From IMG/VR virus record IMGVR_UViG_2541047679_000002: DNA of 6,008 nt. The stretch is one strand, 5' to 3'. The notes beneath the pieces are model-generated. The model was not told the DNA's origin. It searched no databases and worked only from the letters and a program-made list of their open reading frames with translations. Positions within the stretch are counted from its first letter, which is position 1, and every line of letters begins with the position of its first letter. Source of the DNA: a virus (Duplodnaviria; Heunggongvirae; Uroviricota; Caudoviricetes). The translations under genes were made by a program, and so were the position numbers. Positions 3,161 to 6,008 of this stretch are shown here, in pieces.

Positions 3161-3427
3161 ATGATGCAAGAGTGCCTCGTTTTGATTGAAGGGTATGATC
3201 CGTATGTTGTTAACGTCAGTAGAATGGATACTGGCTATAGCGACTACAAAACTGGTCGTGAACTGCCGTTCACCATCATCAGGATGAATAGCTTTGGCGA
3301 TGATGATGCTGTTTATTGCTGTATAGCCAGCGATAAAAACATGGAAGACCGGACAGATGAAGCCCGTATGCTATTGAGGAAATATAAGGTAAAGCCGTTA
3401 TCAGAGAATAACGCTGAGAGGGGTTAA
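3161..3427 (+). CDS. Hypothetical small acidic protein (about 88 aa), first gene of an AT-rich three-gene cassette
   Basis: ORF in track (3131..3427). ATG at 3161 is preferred over the TTG at 3131 and GTG at 3155; purine-rich GAGGGTAGAAG lies upstream. It begins 18 nt after the replication gene stop. Stop TAA at 3425-3427. No recognisable family; start codon uncertain. Confidence 0.5.
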   Translation: MMQECLVLIEGYDPYVVNVSRMDTGYSDYKTGRELPFTIIRMNSFGDDDAVYCCIASDKNMEDRTDEARMLLRKYKVKPLSENNAERG

Positions 3428-3429
3428 AA

Positions 3430-3825
3430 ATGGCAGTTCAATCATACAAATACGAATCCCCTTTGGATAAGGGATACATTCGTATCAAGTTAAGTCGTTC
3501 TCAGCATAAGGCTATTTTTAAGGTAAGGAAAATTCGCATATTGGATGCGTATGCGTATTACTACAACGGTGAAAATGTTGTTGTTGAACACTTTCTTGCA
3601 CGATGGTTTGTAGCTCTGATTTTTGTCCCTCTCCTGTTAATTGGTACTTTTGTGGATGGTTTTCCTAGTACATGGCGGGAGATAAAGAAAGGCTTATTCC
3701 CGCGTAAGTACGGCAGATTTTCGCAAGATAGCTGGCGAGTTATACCGGGTAAACATTCTGTGGATGAGCAACCGATTGTTGATTACTGGTTGAAGCGTAT
3801 GGCTGATGCTAAAAAAGTTGATTGA
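3430..3825 (+). CDS. Hypothetical membrane protein (131 aa) with one predicted transmembrane helix
   Basis: ATG at 3430 preceded by strong SD GAGAGGGG (3416-3423, 6-nt spacer), 2 nt after the upstream stop. Hydrophobic segment WFVALIFVPLLLIGTFV, basic flanks. About 38% GC by hand count over 3430-3489. Confidence 0.65.
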   Translation: MAVQSYKYESPLDKGYIRIKLSRSQHKAIFKVRKIRILDAYAYYYNGENVVVEHFLARWFVALIFVPLLLIGTFVDGFPSTWREIKKGLFPRKYGRFSQDSWRVIPGKHSVDEQPIVDYWLKRMADAKKVD

Positions 3826-3843
3826 GTTGTGGAAGGAGTATTT

Positions 3844-4068
3844 ATGAACTGTAACAAAAATGAAGAAACTCGCCTGGTTTGGACGGTAGTAATCGGAGAT
3901 AAAAAGGGCGGTGAAGAGCCTCATTTTGATTATTCTGTGGCTTTGCAGGCTCTCATCCTTGAAGCTCAGATATACCAACAAGAGATGCAGAAGAACCCTC
4001 AATTGGAACCTCTACCAATTGGCCTATTTTGCGAGCGAGTATCAGCGGCGGAACTCCCTGATATCTGA
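3844..4068 (+). CDS. Hypothetical small protein (74 aa)
   Basis: ATG at 3844 preceded by strong SD GGAAGGAG (3831-3838, 5-nt spacer); track ORF 3829..4068 starts at an upstream GTG. Stop TGA at 4066-4068. No recognisable family. Confidence 0.58.
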   Translation: MNCNKNEETRLVWTVVIGDKKGGEEPHFDYSVALQALILEAQIYQQEMQKNPQLEPLPIGLFCERVSAAELPDI

Positions 4069-4081
4069 TGCCCTCCAACAG

Positions 4082-4100
4082 CTGATCAGGTTCTGATCAG
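4082..4100. promoter_or_regulatory. Two copies of the palindromic octamer CTGATCAG separated by 3 bp, each containing a Dam GATC site; candidate operator or weak hairpin
   Basis: CTGATCAG at 4082-4089 and 4093-4100; the octamer is its own reverse complement; GATC at 4084-4087 and 4095-4098. Lies 14 nt after the stop of the 3844-4068 ORF. Confidence 0.3.
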
Positions 4101-4129
4101 TTAGTAAAGCAAACTATAAAAACACCTGT

Positions 4130-4149
4130 CCCCGTGACTGGTCACGGGG
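4130..4149. promoter_or_regulatory. Perfect 9-bp inverted repeat CCCCGTGAC-TG-GTCACGGGG; candidate protein-binding palindrome or hairpin
   Basis: Left arm 4130-4138 and right arm 4141-4149 are exact reverse complements. Not followed by a T-run on the + strand, so not a canonical intrinsic terminator; on the minus strand a T5 run starts 6 nt after the stem. Confidence 0.3.
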
Positions 4150-4169
4150 TAAAATGTCTTTGCAAATTA

Positions 4170-4199
4170 TTGACGTGTGCGTCGTTTTGACGGTAAAGT
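4170..4199 (+). promoter_or_regulatory. Candidate sigma70-type promoter TTGACG-N18-TAAAGT
   Basis: TTGACG at 4170-4175 and TAAAGT at 4194-4199 (18-bp spacer); predicted start near 4207. Hexamer match only. Confidence 0.3.
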
Positions 4200-4206
4200 T
4201 ACTCCG

Positions 4207-4282
4207 CTGCGGTAAATCCCGCAGTCGGGACTCTCAACCCCGAAATCCGAACGACGCACAACACGCGCCAGCGTGTTTTTTT
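4207..4282 (+). ncRNA. Candidate small terminated transcript (about 76 nt): sRNA or leader/attenuator
   Basis: Bounded by the candidate promoter and the intrinsic terminator. Contains hairpin CTGCGG/CCGCAG (4206-4211 / 4219-4224) and a second possible stem CGGG/CCCG whose loop carries ACTCTCAAC (4230-4238). The overlapping track ORF 4154..4369 runs through the terminator and is unlikely to be coding. Confidence 0.3.
4260..4282 (+). terminator. Rho-independent terminator
   Basis: Stem ACACGC (4261-4266), loop GCCA, stem GCGTGT (4271-4276), followed directly by a run of T ending at 4282. Confidence 0.6.
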
Positions 4283-4364
4283 GTGTGTATAAGCCTGCGC
4301 ATATCCGAATTATGGTGGCTCAGGCGGGGCAGCCGAAAGGCTGGCCGGTGTCGTTTGGGCCGGT

Positions 4365-4420
4365 GTTGAGAACCCCGCTTGGGCTACCACCCTATAGAGA
4401 TTCTCAACTCTGGTGGTAGC
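4365..4420 (+). promoter_or_regulatory. Interleaved complementary boxes in the icd-like leader; candidate antisense-RNA/target pairs (P1 c4-type) or RNA pseudoknot
   Basis: GTTGAGAA (4365-4372) is the exact reverse complement of TTCTCAAC (4401-4408); GCTACCACC (4383-4391) is the exact reverse complement of GGTGGTAGC (4412-4420). Order is A, B, A', B' (crossing), ending 29 nt upstream of the icd-like ATG. Confidence 0.4.
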
Positions 4421-4448
4421 ACTGTTCTTCCAAACAAGAGTGCATACC

Positions 4449-4613
4449 ATGTTCAAATTCAAATTTGCGGCAGTCGTTCGCACAGACAAAAAGTCACACA
4501 TCCATCATCTTTCCACTATCGCGTCATCTGAACGGGAAGCTCGTCGCCAGTTCGCCAGCCGGTTTGTCCTGGTATTGTCTGCCCGTATTCCGGTGCGCGA
4601 GGTGGCTGCATGA
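4449..4613 (+). CDS. icd: Icd-like protein (host cell division inhibitor Icd family), 54 aa
   Basis: ATG at 4449 with weak SD AAGAG upstream. Translation MFKFKFAAVVRTDKKSHIHHLSTIASSEREARRQFASRFVLVLSARIPVREVAA shows the SEREAR and AR(I/L)PV pattern I recall for Icd-like proteins of enterobacterial prophages. Track ORF 4413..4613 starts at an upstream GTG lacking an SD. Confidence 0.7.
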   Translation: MFKFKFAAVVRTDKKSHIHHLSTIASSEREARRQFASRFVLVLSARIPVREVAA

Positions 4614-4843
4614 ATCAGGTAAAAATGAACACTGTTGGCCTGCTGGAATCGTTGGATGAACGTCTGGCTCAGGTCTATGCGCTTGTGTCATCAGCCCATC
4701 GTACAGTCTCCAGTTGTGAGGCGTCGATTTATCTCTCAGAAGCCGGGAAGCTCCTTCAAATCGCGTGTGAGTTGACACACGAAGCACAGGGGTATTCAGC
4801 ATCTCTCTCGTCGCAATTGCAGCACAATAAGGAGGCCAAATGA
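4610..4843 (+). CDS. Hypothetical protein (77 aa), translationally coupled between icd-like and antirepressor genes
   Basis: ATG at 4610 overlaps the icd-like stop (ATGA, 4610-4613); its own stop overlaps the next start (ATGA, 4840-4843). Predicted helical, no recognisable family; an internal ATG at 4625 is an alternative start. Confidence 0.55.
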   Translation: MNQVKMNTVGLLESLDERLAQVYALVSSAHRTVSSCEASIYLSEAGKLLQIACELTHEAQGYSASLSSQLQHNKEAK

Positions 4844-5616
4844 GCGCGTTAGCTGTATTTTCGTTTCAGGAAGAGCATCAGGTTCGTGTAGTGATGATTA
4901 ACGGTGAGCCGTGGTTTGTTGCATCTGATGTGTGTATGGCGGCGGGTATTGATTCTACGGCCATTAGAAAGTTGGATGAGGACGAAAAGGGTCTGCATTT
5001 AATGCAGACCCCTGGCGGATACCAGAATGTTTCAATCATCAACGAGTCAGGTCTATACACCCTGATCCTCCGCTGCCGTGACGCGGTGAAGCAAGGCACA
5101 ACAGCTTGGCGGTTTCGCAAATGGGTAACGAACGAAGTCTTGCCCTCTATTCGCAAAAATGGAGAGTACGTTTACATCGAGCCTGAGCCAATGCGAGCAG
5201 CGGAGCCGTTGAACGGGAGGCAGAAAGCGTATCTGCGAGGGCTGATTAACGATATAGCACAAAGTTTTCGGTGCCGAAATGCCTGGATCAGTGGAATATG
5301 GTTGGCTTTGCGTCGGGCGTGTCGTAATCCATCCCCGAACCCCATAACGGTTGATGATTTGCCAGCAATTGCGGCAGAACTGCGCAGGATTTTGACGGCT
5401 GCTGAGTCGGCATTGAGGAACATGCGCACGTATGAACGGGAGTTGTTGCGTGATGTTGTTCGTGGGGGTAGGCGGAGTATGTCGTGTGGTGATTTGCCCA
5501 TCATCGATATCAACTCTGATCTGGAAAAGGCGTTACCCGCACATTTTGAACTGGCAGTTCAAAAACTTGAGCAGTTATCCGCGCAGTTAAAGCCAGCAGA
5601 AATCACTAATAAATAG
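4840..5616 (+). CDS. Bro-N domain antirepressor-like protein (258 aa)
   Basis: Strong SD AAGGAGG (4829-4835) 4 nt before ATG 4840. N-terminal about 110 aa match the Bro-N pattern (FSFQ...GEPWFVASDVC...LDEDEKG...GGYQ...INESGLYTLILR...WVTNEVLPSIRKNGEY). C-terminal about 140 aa not recognised. Stop TAG at 5614-5616. Confidence 0.85.
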   Translation: MSALAVFSFQEEHQVRVVMINGEPWFVASDVCMAAGIDSTAIRKLDEDEKGLHLMQTPGGYQNVSIINESGLYTLILRCRDAVKQGTTAWRFRKWVTNEVLPSIRKNGEYVYIEPEPMRAAEPLNGRQKAYLRGLINDIAQSFRCRNAWISGIWLALRRACRNPSPNPITVDDLPAIAAELRRILTAAESALRNMRTYERELLRDVVRGGRRSMSCGDLPIIDINSDLEKALPAHFELAVQKLEQLSAQLKPAEITNK

Positions 5617-5752
5617 GGTTGGCCAGCCCGAATTTATGCCCTTCTTATTGAGGGGAAGCCTCGCAGTCTGGGCGGTGATGTCTGTGGTTGCAGCCGCGTT
5701 TCCTCCGTTACTTCTGCCCTTTGCAGGGGGCAGGCGAGGCAGGCCACATAAC

Positions 5753-5777
5753 AAGGCACCGATTAATTCGGTGCCTT
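5753..5777. terminator. Candidate bidirectional terminator hairpin between convergent genes
   Basis: 10-bp perfect stem AAGGCACCGA (5753-5762) / TCGGTGCCTT (5768-5777) with loop TTAAT. Only short T-runs on either side. Sits 137 nt after the Bro-N stop and 11 nt after the minus-strand gene stop. Confidence 0.45.
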
Positions 5778-5788
5778 TAACGTATGCT

Positions 5789-6008
5789 TTAGCCGAAATA
5801 TGTCAGCCATGCTAACTGCATTGCTGACATGGGGCTGTTTGCACTGCCTGACCACGCATAATTCTGGCCATTATAATGAAACTCAACAACGTATGAGCCA
5901 TCACCAATATTTCTCACAGGCTTAAATACCGGCTTAGATACAGGTGAAGAAGGCGCGGGCGGTTGCTGTTCTTCTACGCTCTCTTCCTCTTCCTCTTCCT
6001 CTTCCTCT
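5789..6008 (-). CDS. Hypothetical protein, 3'-terminal part only (gene start lies beyond the right window edge); poly-Glu tract, Pro-rich linker, small C-terminal domain
   Basis: Hand translation of the reverse complement from nt 6007 gives 72 sense codons with no stop: EEEEEEEEESVEEQQPPAPSSPVSKPVFKPVRNIGDGSYVVEFHYNGQNYAWSGSANSPMSAMQLAWLTYFG, ending at TAA (complement of 5789-5791). Not in the ORF track because it has no start in the window. Confidence 0.55.
   Translation of the reverse strand, partial: EEEEEEEEESVEEQQPPAPSSPVSKPVFKPVRNIGDGSYVVEFHYNGQNYAWSGSANSPMSAMQLAWLTYFG
5981..6008. repeat. Hexanucleotide tandem repeat (CTCTTC)n, at least 4.7 copies, running off the window edge
   Basis: CTCTTC repeated from 5981 to the end of the window; on the minus strand this reads (GAAGAG)n = Glu-Glu repeats inside the partial CDS. 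Confidence 0.85.

Follow-up and report, generated by a model that had tools for sequence, protein, structure and literature searches.

An N15-like immA operon with a probable leader-derived C4-type antisense RNA in a telomere phage

Gene content and genomic setting

The stretch of viral DNA analyzed here (the window; 6,008 nucleotides, IMG/VR record IMGVR_UViG_2541047679_000002) is a segment of a telomere phage (Ravinvirus) with the gene order repA, cargo ORFs, immA and telN. At its 5' end, a profile search found a RepA of the CyRepA1 family, and at the other end the C-terminus of telN lies on the minus strand from 5789 (stop codon 5789-5791). The immA locus is placed between repA and the convergent protelomerase gene, as is an immA of the N15 type. 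This repA-cargo-immA-telN synteny is common to the window, N15 and Ravinvirus YDC107_1; DNA identity is 97% to YDC107_1 and, over the leader and icd, 80% to N15. The cargo between repA and immA differs from that of N15, with gp36 alone common to both. In addition, all E. coli matches (25/25) are plasmid-borne.

The immA operon is made up of icd, antA and antB (PMC4488713), and three corresponding genes follow one another on the plus strand of the window. The first, icd (4449-4613), encodes a 54-aa Icd-like inhibitor of host cell division, which scores 67 bits on the NCBIfam model NF033153 (phage_ICD_like; cut-off 25), on which P1 Icd scores 52.6 bits, and has 94% identity with N15 gp32 over the C-terminal 54 aa of the latter. 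The PHROG name for this family is "transcriptional repressor". The second gene (4610-4843, 77 aa) had been called unknown in a previous reading of this DNA (the sequence-only reading), which needs to be corrected: it is the orthologue of the N15 antirepressor AntA (gp31, 63% identity). It matches PHROG 6301 and PHROG 10889, "anti-repressor", a Pfam search of it gave no match, and in the phiKO2 record the homologous protein carries a label of similarity to N15 antirepressor AntA. The third gene (4840-5616, 258 aa) is the antB orthologue, with an N-terminal Bro-N domain (Pfam PF02498, 68.8 bits), 71% identity to N15 gp30 and matches to the PHROG Ant families. The phiKO2 record labels AntB auxiliary, and according to a later review its function is still not elucidated (PMC4488713). 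Both the Icd-like and the Bro-N assignments proposed previously thus held in profile searches. The three genes also overlap by ATGA as had been described, with junctions at 4610-4613 (icd/antA) and 4840-4843 (antA/antB). Between antB and the convergent telN, a 10-bp hairpin assigned to neither strand (5753-5777; -17.7 kcal/mol, z = -7.1) lies where phiKO2 is annotated with a "putative bidirectional" terminator, and it is probably a bidirectional terminator that closes the immA operon.

The sequence-only reading had also remarked that no protein repressor is present. This is literally true in the window, where a Pfam scan of seven ORFs matched a helix-turn-helix in none of them (0/7), but it is not a feature of the element. 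In the 97% identical YDC107_1, a helix-turn-helix repressor gene (cB) and cro sit directly upstream of repA, and the absence is therefore an effect of the window edge.

Upstream block and promoter

A block on the plus strand 5' of the promoter (4081-4150) is kept in 10 of 10 telomere-phage loci, whatever the upstream cargo. It contains two palindromic CTGATCAG octamers (4082-4089 and 4093-4100) and an 8-bp GC-rich hairpin at 4130-4149 (-15.5 kcal/mol, z = -3.1), and may insulate the operon from, or terminate, the repA-cargo transcript coming from upstream. The octamer was found nowhere else in the loci examined. The palindromes (4082-4100) were considered as CB operators and set aside, as the cB-cro repeats of YDC107_1 look different.

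The sigma-70 promoter (4170-4199, plus strand; the Pa equivalent) consists of a -35 hexamer TTGACG, an 18-nt spacer and a -10 hexamer TAAAGT, with 9 of 12 matches in a consensus scan. Across 11 phages the -35 hexamer is invariant and the -10 hexamer nearly so. Transcription probably starts at about 4205-4206, and the match to the Rfam isrK model begins at 4206. The promoter spacer (4177-4187) and the b1 region (4250-4260) form an inverted repeat, which was put down to chance: visual inspection of an alignment showed that it is lost in relatives with a differing b1.

Leader RNA and C4-family RNA

A structured non-coding leader had been predicted upstream of icd, and the folding analysis bears this out: the region 4206-4470 folds at -110.8 kcal/mol compared with -83.5 +/- 5.3 kcal/mol for shuffles (z = -5.2). 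A covariance-model scan placed two Rfam families above their gathering scores in this leader, both where they had been predicted; they are two of the three models (C4, P4 CI and IsrK) that the sequence-only reading had named. One is isrK (RF01394), which matches 4206-4281 over model positions 1-77 of 77 with 54.7 bits (gathering threshold 50) and defines a leader RNA at 4206-4284 on the plus strand, equivalent to IsrK, P4 seqA and P1 a1b1. This RNA comprises hairpin 1 (4206-4225), seen in the fold and in compensatory changes; hairpin 2 (4226-4242), with a single-stranded spacer on its 3' side; and an intrinsic terminator (the Ta equivalent), found by terminator scan and fold, with its stem at 4260-4277 and its U-run at 4278-4284. 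The N15 record annotates a terminator at the homologous leader position. Among 11 phages, the intramolecular leader structure is 96.8% paired, with 9 compensatory pairs.

The other family is C4 (RF01695), which matches 4308-4394 on the plus strand over model positions 1-87 of 87 with 73.8 bits (threshold 45; E = 1.5e-13) and is the equivalent of the N15 CA RNA. The C4 RNA folds at -50.6 kcal/mol (z = -4.9), with compensatory pairs in the outer stem and in hairpin 1, and placing it in register with P1 c4, whose ends are annotated, predicts a mature RNA of 78 nt from 4314 to 4391. Promoter, intrinsic terminator and small-RNA gene are thus all arranged in this order upstream of icd, which is the N15-type layout. 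When 3800-6008 was searched for additional RNAs with Rfam at a low threshold, the sole extra match was c4-a1b1 (RF03163) on the leader, under its gathering threshold (30.4 bits against 46.7).

Despite that low score, complementarity of the C4 RNA to a1 and b1 is present by direct comparison. The antisense boxes are b' (GUGUCGUUUGGG, 4348-4359), mainly in the loop of C4 hairpin 2, and a' (GUUGAGAA, 4365-4372), in the single-stranded 3' junction. The upstream targets are a1 (UCUCAAC, 4232-4238), in the loop of leader hairpin 2, and b1 (UCCGAACGACGC, 4246-4257), in the spacer directly 5' of the terminator; they complement a' over 7 nt and b' over 12 bp including G-U pairs, respectively. The downstream targets are a2 (UUCUCAAC, 4401-4408), which is perfectly complementary to a' over 8 nt and occupies the loop of a short hairpin (4395-4412), and b2 (CCAAAC, 4430-4435), which matches b' over just 6 nt and adjoins the icd Shine-Dalgarno sequence AAGAG (4436-4440; the two together span 4430-4440). 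All six boxes are on the plus strand. A hairpin at 4413-4450 holds b2 and the Shine-Dalgarno sequence, with the first two start-codon bases paired in it as well, and the icd ribosome-binding site is partly sequestered by this local hairpin even without antisense RNA.

It is very improbable that the leader instead codes for a small protein repressor, the historical "cA secondary immunity repressor", from a 71-aa ORF (4154-4369) or a 48-aa ORF (4273-4419). GenBank U63086 does have a cA CDS, several records annotate ORFs in this place, and the PHROG label of the Icd family would fit a repressor. However, the ORF from the conserved AUG (4312) shifts in frame and length, with 35 codons in the window and, over 11 relatives, a range from 28 to more than 53 codons spread across three frames; the substitutions compensate one another within RNA helices; and two covariance models fit the leader region. 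A coding uORF running through C4 was rejected for its shifting frame and length, whether as a cA protein or as an analogue of orf45 of Gifsy-1.

Co-variation of antisense and target boxes

Comparative data give strong evidence for pairing of a' with a1 and a2 at the RNA level. In 11 phages the a':a2 helix is 90.9% paired, compared with 63% after shuffling and no more than 48% for slid controls, and 5 of its 8 pairs show compensatory change. In a broader set of 40 unique related leaders from IMG/VR and GenBank, with a match defined as at least 7 nt, a' matched the cognate a1 in 38 of 40 leaders and a1 of other-allele leaders in 5 of 1236 comparisons; for a2 the figures were 38/40 and 0/1236. 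Similarly, cognate pairs dominate the cross-matrix of C4-to-target duplex energies. The co-variation of a1 with a' is as tight as that of a2, so a1 is selected for pairing.

Seven alleles of a' and 16 of b' occur in the 40 leaders, joined in 24 combinations. Each a' allele is matched by its own a1 and a2, and each b' allele, less cleanly, by its own b1 and b2. The window combines the a' allele of N15, matching a1 and a2, with a b' allele found otherwise in Klebsiella telomere phages, and in the latter it differs from N15 (GUCGUUUGG:CCGAACGAC in the window, CUUCUUGU:ACAAGAAG in N15).

Proposed mechanism

We consider it very probable that an N15-like linear plasmid-prophage carries its immA ("anti-immunity") operon here, with icd, antA and antB silenced by a leader-derived C4-type antisense RNA. 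The RNA-controlled antirepressor module resembling P1 immI that the sequence-only reading had put forward is supported by the C4 and isrK matches, the Icd and Bro-N genes and the P1-like layout of the boxes. A constitutive sigma-70 promoter (4170-4199) would make a leader that carries a1 in a hairpin loop and b1 in a spacer, followed by the terminator (4260-4284), at which the majority of transcripts would end as a short IsrK/seqA-like RNA. Read-through RNA would hold the tRNA-like C4 element, from which RNase P and 3' trimming would excise a stable RNA of about 78 nt (4314-4391). Through b' in its hairpin loop and a' in its 3' junction, the C4 RNA would pair with a1 and b1 on nascent leaders and strengthen leader termination, as for N15 and for P4 t1. 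It would also pair with a2 and b2 by the icd ribosome-binding site and block icd translation, as in P1, and silencing of icd would silence antA and antB as well, because the ATGA overlaps link the three genes. When the C4 RNA is scarce or mismatched, as early in infection or with a superinfecting relative that carries other alleles, Icd, AntA and AntB would be made, and the primary repressor CB, whose gene is outside the window, would then be inactivated.

The weighting of termination against the translational block is tentative. With loop-loop kissing outside the model, equilibrium folding gives the terminator stem a probability of 0.8-1.0 without C4 RNA, scarcely altered with it, and cofolding of leader and C4 RNA yields a net gain of just -2.6 kcal/mol, because the outer stem of C4 has to open. 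As the terminator hairpin forms without the C4 RNA, any effect on termination would be kinetic or take another route. Such a hairpin, equally formed in silico with or without C4 RNA, is what would be expected if regulation were purely of the P1 type, a possible but less probable reading in which the C4 RNA essentially occludes the icd ribosome-binding site at a2/b2, loss of translation brings Rho-dependent polarity on antA and antB, the leader terminator does no more than attenuate constitutively, and a1/b1 serve as decoys or help the RNA to fold. The position of b2 next to the Shine-Dalgarno sequence and a box order and spacing nearly as in P1 are in its favor, and the P1 record marks a2/b2 for "repression of icd ant translation" and a1/b1 merely as "putative" targets. 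It does not, however, account for a1 co-varying with a' as tightly as a2 (38/40). Ravin and colleagues reportedly found in 1999 that the CA RNA of N15 works through premature termination at Ta. In P4, the seqA/IsrK-like element is essential to establish the lysogenic state (PMC3632133).

A positive switch like that of IsrK in Gifsy-1, replacing or added to repression, is rather unlikely. The terminated leader RNA (4206-4284) would then act in trans, either on read-through RNA or on the C4 RNA, displacing the cis a1b1:a'b' helix or titrating the antisense RNA, and so turn on translation of icd, antA and antB. The isrK match above threshold would suit such a switch, as would the roughly 45 bp over which the leader complements C4 in the 3' half of the latter (-84 kcal/mol for the inter-strand duplex). 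In addition, the full-length fold flips between a long-range a1b1:a'b' helix and a modular form on the addition of just 10 nt, a behavior reminiscent of Gifsy-1, whose structures A and B are nearly isoenergetic (PMC4825925). Against it, the small CA RNA of the orthologous N15 operon is reported to regulate antirepressor synthesis negatively (PMC10732415), and the Gifsy-1 model needs translation of orf45 across the C4-like region, for which a conserved orf45-like frame was not found across the telomere-phage family (11 relatives).

Relation to known immunity systems

The kind of operon seen here has already been characterized in N15 immA and P1 immI. The sequence-only reading took P1 as its model, and the layout does match P1, but the closest known system is the orthologous N15 immA (Pa, Ta, CA RNA, icd, antA, antB; Ravin, Svarchevsky & Deho 1999), which also shares the position between repA and telN. 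P1/P7 immI (c4, icd, ant1/ant2) has a C4-family RNA, a leader that has b1, a hairpin resembling a terminator, and a1 within a hairpin loop, a2/b2 preceding the icd ribosome-binding site, an Icd in the same NCBIfam family and an ATGA joining icd to the next gene. The distances from a1 to b1 (14 nt) and from a2 to b2 (29 nt) are the same in both, and b2 lies 18 nt from the AUG in P1 and 19 nt in the window. There are also differences. On the P1 leader the c4-a1b1 model scores above threshold and isrK does not, with the opposite outcome in the window; the Icd proteins of P1 and the window have diverged beyond the reach of BLASTP; and the P1 promoter region has an annotated C1 operator, with no counterpart identified in the window. 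P1 Ant1 bears a KilAC/ANT domain (PF03374), whereas AntB bears PF02498, and BLASTP found no significant similarity of AntA or AntB to Ant1 (best E about 0.5).

In P4 immunity (seqA, CI RNA, seqC), the CI-type RNA belongs with C4 to Rfam clan CL00128, seqA is a structural homologue of IsrK, and an antisense RNA processed from the leader targets sites up- and downstream of its own position (PMC3632133, PMC4825925). According to the literature, however, termination in P4 controls the replication (alpha) operon, and P4 is without icd or antirepressor genes. The Salmonella Gifsy-1 locus isrK/orf45 (STnc1160)/anrP shares an IsrK leader, a leaky terminator followed by a leader-complementary region, a stable processed RNA downstream of IsrK and a translationally coupled antirepressor; it differs in being without icd and in its published mechanism, which is activation by short IsrK in trans with translation of orf45 required. 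The APSE phages of Hamiltonella have isrK, then C4, then a Bro-N gene, with a'/b' boxes, annotated in GenBank, but neither icd nor antA between the RNA and the Bro-N gene.

Implications

The locus opens no new kind of mechanism, and its main value is for annotation. Deposited relatives are without both RNA genes, and their records place spurious "hypothetical protein", "Icd-like" or "transcriptional repressor" ORFs over them; the 77-aa AntA homologue is mostly unnamed. In addition, the locus offers a clean example from nature of co-evolution between an antisense RNA and two copies of its target.

The mildly new point is the existence of combinatorial a'/b' specificity alleles among telomere phages. 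We tentatively suggest, at somewhat less than even odds, that a' and b' together act as a combinatorial code of specificity. Were control to depend on both boxes, telomere phages would divide into many "anti-immunity" specificity groups, with recombination reassorting them. Relatives that are co-resident or superinfecting could then silence one another's antirepressors, or fail to do so, in an RNA-level heteroimmunity network on top of the protein repressor. The allele diversity may be useful for predicting which telomere phage-plasmids, a common group in Klebsiella and Escherichia, are cross-immune.

Genomic Context of the Locus

Megablast comparison groups the window with the N15-like linear plasmid-prophages: the Ravinvirus YDC107_1 is 97% identical over 4100-5700, and N15 is 80% identical over 4103-4722. 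Matches were found in 18 of 5426 complete E. coli genomes, always on plasmids, and in 199 PLSDB plasmids, chiefly from Klebsiella and Escherichia. The plus strand carries the 3' 3.1 kb of a replication gene (to 3143; NCBIfam CyRepA1 family, PHROG 4913 "replication"), three small ORFs between repA and immA (3161-4068), a non-coding stretch of 380 nt and three overlapping genes (4449-5616), and the C-terminus of a protelomerase lies on the minus strand (stop at 5789-5791). N15 genes 37 to 29 follow the same order of repA, small ORFs, immA and convergent telN. Of the small ORFs, only the first (3161-3427) is represented in N15 (gp36, 77% identity); the next one, 3430-3825, belongs to PHROG 15458 and encodes a hydrophobic segment. 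Klebsiella relatives hold other cargo in the repA-immA slot, including colicin-like "telocin" toxin and immunity genes (PMC12042878), which are annotated in phage Kpn74 (L007), and 3161-4068 appears to be a site where the cargo varies. Near its C-terminus the protelomerase frame (minus strand, 5981-6007) has nine glutamates in a row and then a proline-rich stretch, which explains the CTCTTC repeats at the window end. The YDC107_1 record (L002, CP025712.1) has two inverted copies of the immA operon and of parts of telN (6001-7716 and 11847-13601), flanking fragmented "protelomerase domain" ORFs. This arrangement looks more like an assembly that continued across the hairpin telomere than like a true duplication.

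The sequence-only reading had noted that no protein repressor is visible. This holds for the window but not for the element: YDC107_1 has an HTH repressor gene and cro directly upstream of repA, and the absence is therefore an effect of the cut position.

The icd-antA-antB Genes

The Icd-like gene proposed earlier matches NCBIfam phage_ICD_like (67 bits, cut-off 25), as does P1 Icd, and the Bro-N gene was confirmed by its domain (68.8 bits) and by matches to many PHROG Ant families; ATGA overlaps occur at both gene junctions. The window Icd aligns at 94% identity with the last 54 residues of N15 gp32, and the 77-aa and Bro-N proteins are 63% and 71% identical to gp31 and gp30, respectively. 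In the phiKO2 record, the counterparts of these genes are described as similar to N15 icd, "antirepressor ... AntA" and "auxiliary anti-repressor ... AntB". In telomere-phage reviews, immA is an operon of icd, antA and antB, and what AntB does is still to be elucidated (PMC4488713), and antA cloned from a Yersinia relative blocks lysogenisation according to the literature. Sequence identity, labels and published work together show that the 77-aa gene, present as proposed but not of unknown kind, encodes the homologue of the N15 protein that carries the antirepressor label; the accessory one is the Bro-N protein.

Anatomy of the Leader

The leader folds much better than shuffled sequences (z = -5.2), in agreement with its earlier description as structured, and two of the covariance models named in that reading scored above threshold: isrK at 4206-4281 (54.7 bits, curated threshold 50) and C4 at 4308-4394 (73.8 bits, curated threshold 45). 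On the plus strand, a sigma-70 promoter (-35 TTGACG at 4170; -10 TAAAGT ending at 4199), whose -35 is invariant and -10 nearly invariant across 11 phages, precedes a leader RNA starting at about 4206. Folding predicts hairpins at 4206-4225 and 4226-4242, followed by a single-stranded spacer, and folding and a terminator scan place an intrinsic terminator at 4260-4277 (stem) plus seven U. The C4 match is full-length, with the 17-bp outer stem typical of the family, two internal hairpins and a single-stranded 3' junction. Placed in register with mature P1 c4, whose ends are annotated, the predicted mature RNA should span 4314-4391 (78 nt, ACC end).

With boxes named as in the P1 record, b' (GUGUCGUUUGGG, 4348-4359) lies mostly in the C4 hairpin-2 loop and a' (GUUGAGAA, 4365-4372) in the 3' junction. 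Upstream of C4, a1 (UCUCAAC, 4232-4238) occupies the leader hairpin 2 loop and b1 (UCCGAACGACGC, 4246-4257) the spacer; downstream, a2 (UUCUCAAC, 4401-4408) forms the loop of a small hairpin, and b2 (CCAAAC, 4430-4435) adjoins the icd Shine-Dalgarno AAGAG, with the AUG at 4449. The icd ribosome-binding site is predicted to be partly sequestered already by a local hairpin (4413-4450).

A block of about 70 nt 5' of the promoter (4081-4150) is kept in all 10 telomere-phage loci compared, despite differing genes before it. It contains a GC-rich hairpin (4130-4149) and two palindromic octamers CTGATCAG, each with a Dam site, at 11 nt spacing (4082, 4093), arranged as AACTGATCAG-GTT-CTGATCAGTT. No further copy of the pair occurs in the window or in the N15 and YDC107_1 loci, and the octamers look unlike the repeats that lie between cB and cro.

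Co-variation of the Antisense and Target Boxes

In aligned leaders of 11 telomere phages, the intramolecular helices showed 96.8% pairing, and in 9 pairs both partners had changed. Neither figure was equalled by any shuffle, and pairing in slid controls did not exceed 46%. For the a':a2 helix, pairing was 90.9%, whereas shuffles gave 63% and slid controls no more than 48%; five of its eight pairs were compensatory. Five a' classes occurred among these phages, and a1 and a2 were exactly complementary in every class; matches were 7-8 nt for cognate boxes versus mostly 3-5 nt (maximum 6) between classes, and cognate duplex energies dominated the cross-matrix.

A scan of IMG/VR with the conserved 5' strand of C4 gave 40 unique parsed leaders, in which 7 a' and 16 b' alleles form 24 combinations. 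Matches of at least 7 nt occurred in 38 of the 40 cognate comparisons for both a':a1 and a':a2, against 5 and 0, respectively, of 1236 comparisons with other-allele loci. Mean b':b1 and b':b2 matches were 7.0 and 6.5 nt within a locus versus 5.2 and 4.8 nt with other loci. The only two exceptions, contigs L067 (142-473) and L081 (7411-7745), each have two copies of the conserved strand on one strand, 317-320 nt apart; their parsable copies have an a' without a match of at least 7 nt to flanking a1/a2-like sequence, and they may be tandem or rearranged modules.

Such three-way co-variation is expected if an antisense RNA acts in trans on two copies of its target. A protein-coding reading cannot yield it, and the ORF that opens at the conserved AUG of the C4 5' strand varies in length and frame among the 11 phages; a protein "cA" repressor was therefore rejected. 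Deposited relatives annotate protein genes over isrK and C4 (L002 6055-6270; L001 5221-5346; L009 1634-1768; L011 1670-1846; cA in U63086), variously as "hypothetical protein", "transcriptional repressor" or "secondary immunity repressor cA", as a second "Icd-like protein", or by extending N15 gp32 at its N-terminus. These annotations appear spurious, and the PHROG label "transcriptional repressor" on the Icd family is probably a legacy of the old cA annotation.

Proposed Mode of Control

RNA-based control of the antirepressor, as suggested by the sequence-only reading, is supported by the leader RNA matches and by the co-variation of a'/b' with their targets, and the N15/P1 model is the most likely form of it. 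The promoter would be constitutive, with most transcripts stopped at the leader terminator; read-through would supply a C4-type RNA that is processed and accumulates. Its a' and b' would pair with a1/b1 on nascent leaders and enforce termination, as at N15 Ta and P4 t1, and the same RNA would pair with a2/b2 and block the icd ribosome-binding site, as in P1, holding antA and antB silent via ATGA coupling. CA RNA reportedly works via premature termination, a result said to be that of Ravin et al. in 1999. The terminator hairpin is predicted both with and without C4 RNA, and thermodynamic folding thus leaves the termination effect unexplained; a purely translational mechanism of the P1 type is possible, though rather unlikely. 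N15 CA RNA is described as a negative regulator of antirepressor synthesis (PMC10732415).

The leader is complementary to the C4 3' half over about 45 bp, and the predicted full-length folds flip on a 10-nt extension, from a long-range cis helix of a1/b1 with a'/b' (4206-4470, -110.8 kcal/mol) to a modular form with leader hairpins and C4 element intact (4206-4480, -118.3 kcal/mol). These modelled conformations are probably close in energy, as is reported for structures A and B at the isrK locus of Gifsy-1 (PMC4825925), which the flip brings to mind. An activating role for the short leader RNA, as in Gifsy-1, is nevertheless unlikely, and the ORF equivalent to the orf45 that this model requires is not conserved among the 11 phages.

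Relation to Known Systems

The likeness to P1 immI proposed earlier holds for architecture, which the locus shares with P1/P7 immI, but not for the antirepressor proteins, which are unrelated: P1 Ant1 has a KilAC/ANT domain and no significant similarity to the window AntA or AntB. The locus is the orthologue of N15 immA. Spacings from a1 to b1 (14 nt) and from a2 to b2 (29 nt) are the same in P1 and the window, and b2 lies 18 nt from the AUG in P1 and 19 nt in the window. The P1 leader has a terminator-like hairpin and a sub-threshold isrK match (35 bits), and the window leader has a sub-threshold c4-a1b1 match (30.4 bits); thus, both Rfam leader families describe one element. The equivalences of IsrK with seqA and of C4 with CI have been drawn across P4, P1, P7 and N15 (PMC3632133), and APSE phage records already annotate the order isrK, C4, Bro-N gene. 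Given the N15 orthology, the immI architecture and the APSE annotation, the locus is already known.

One observation had no precedent in the accessible literature: the a' and b' alleles assort combinatorially. In the window, the N15 a' is joined to a b' allele that otherwise occurs in Klebsiella phages, and this allele comparison suggests that there may be many reassorting RNA-level specificity groups.
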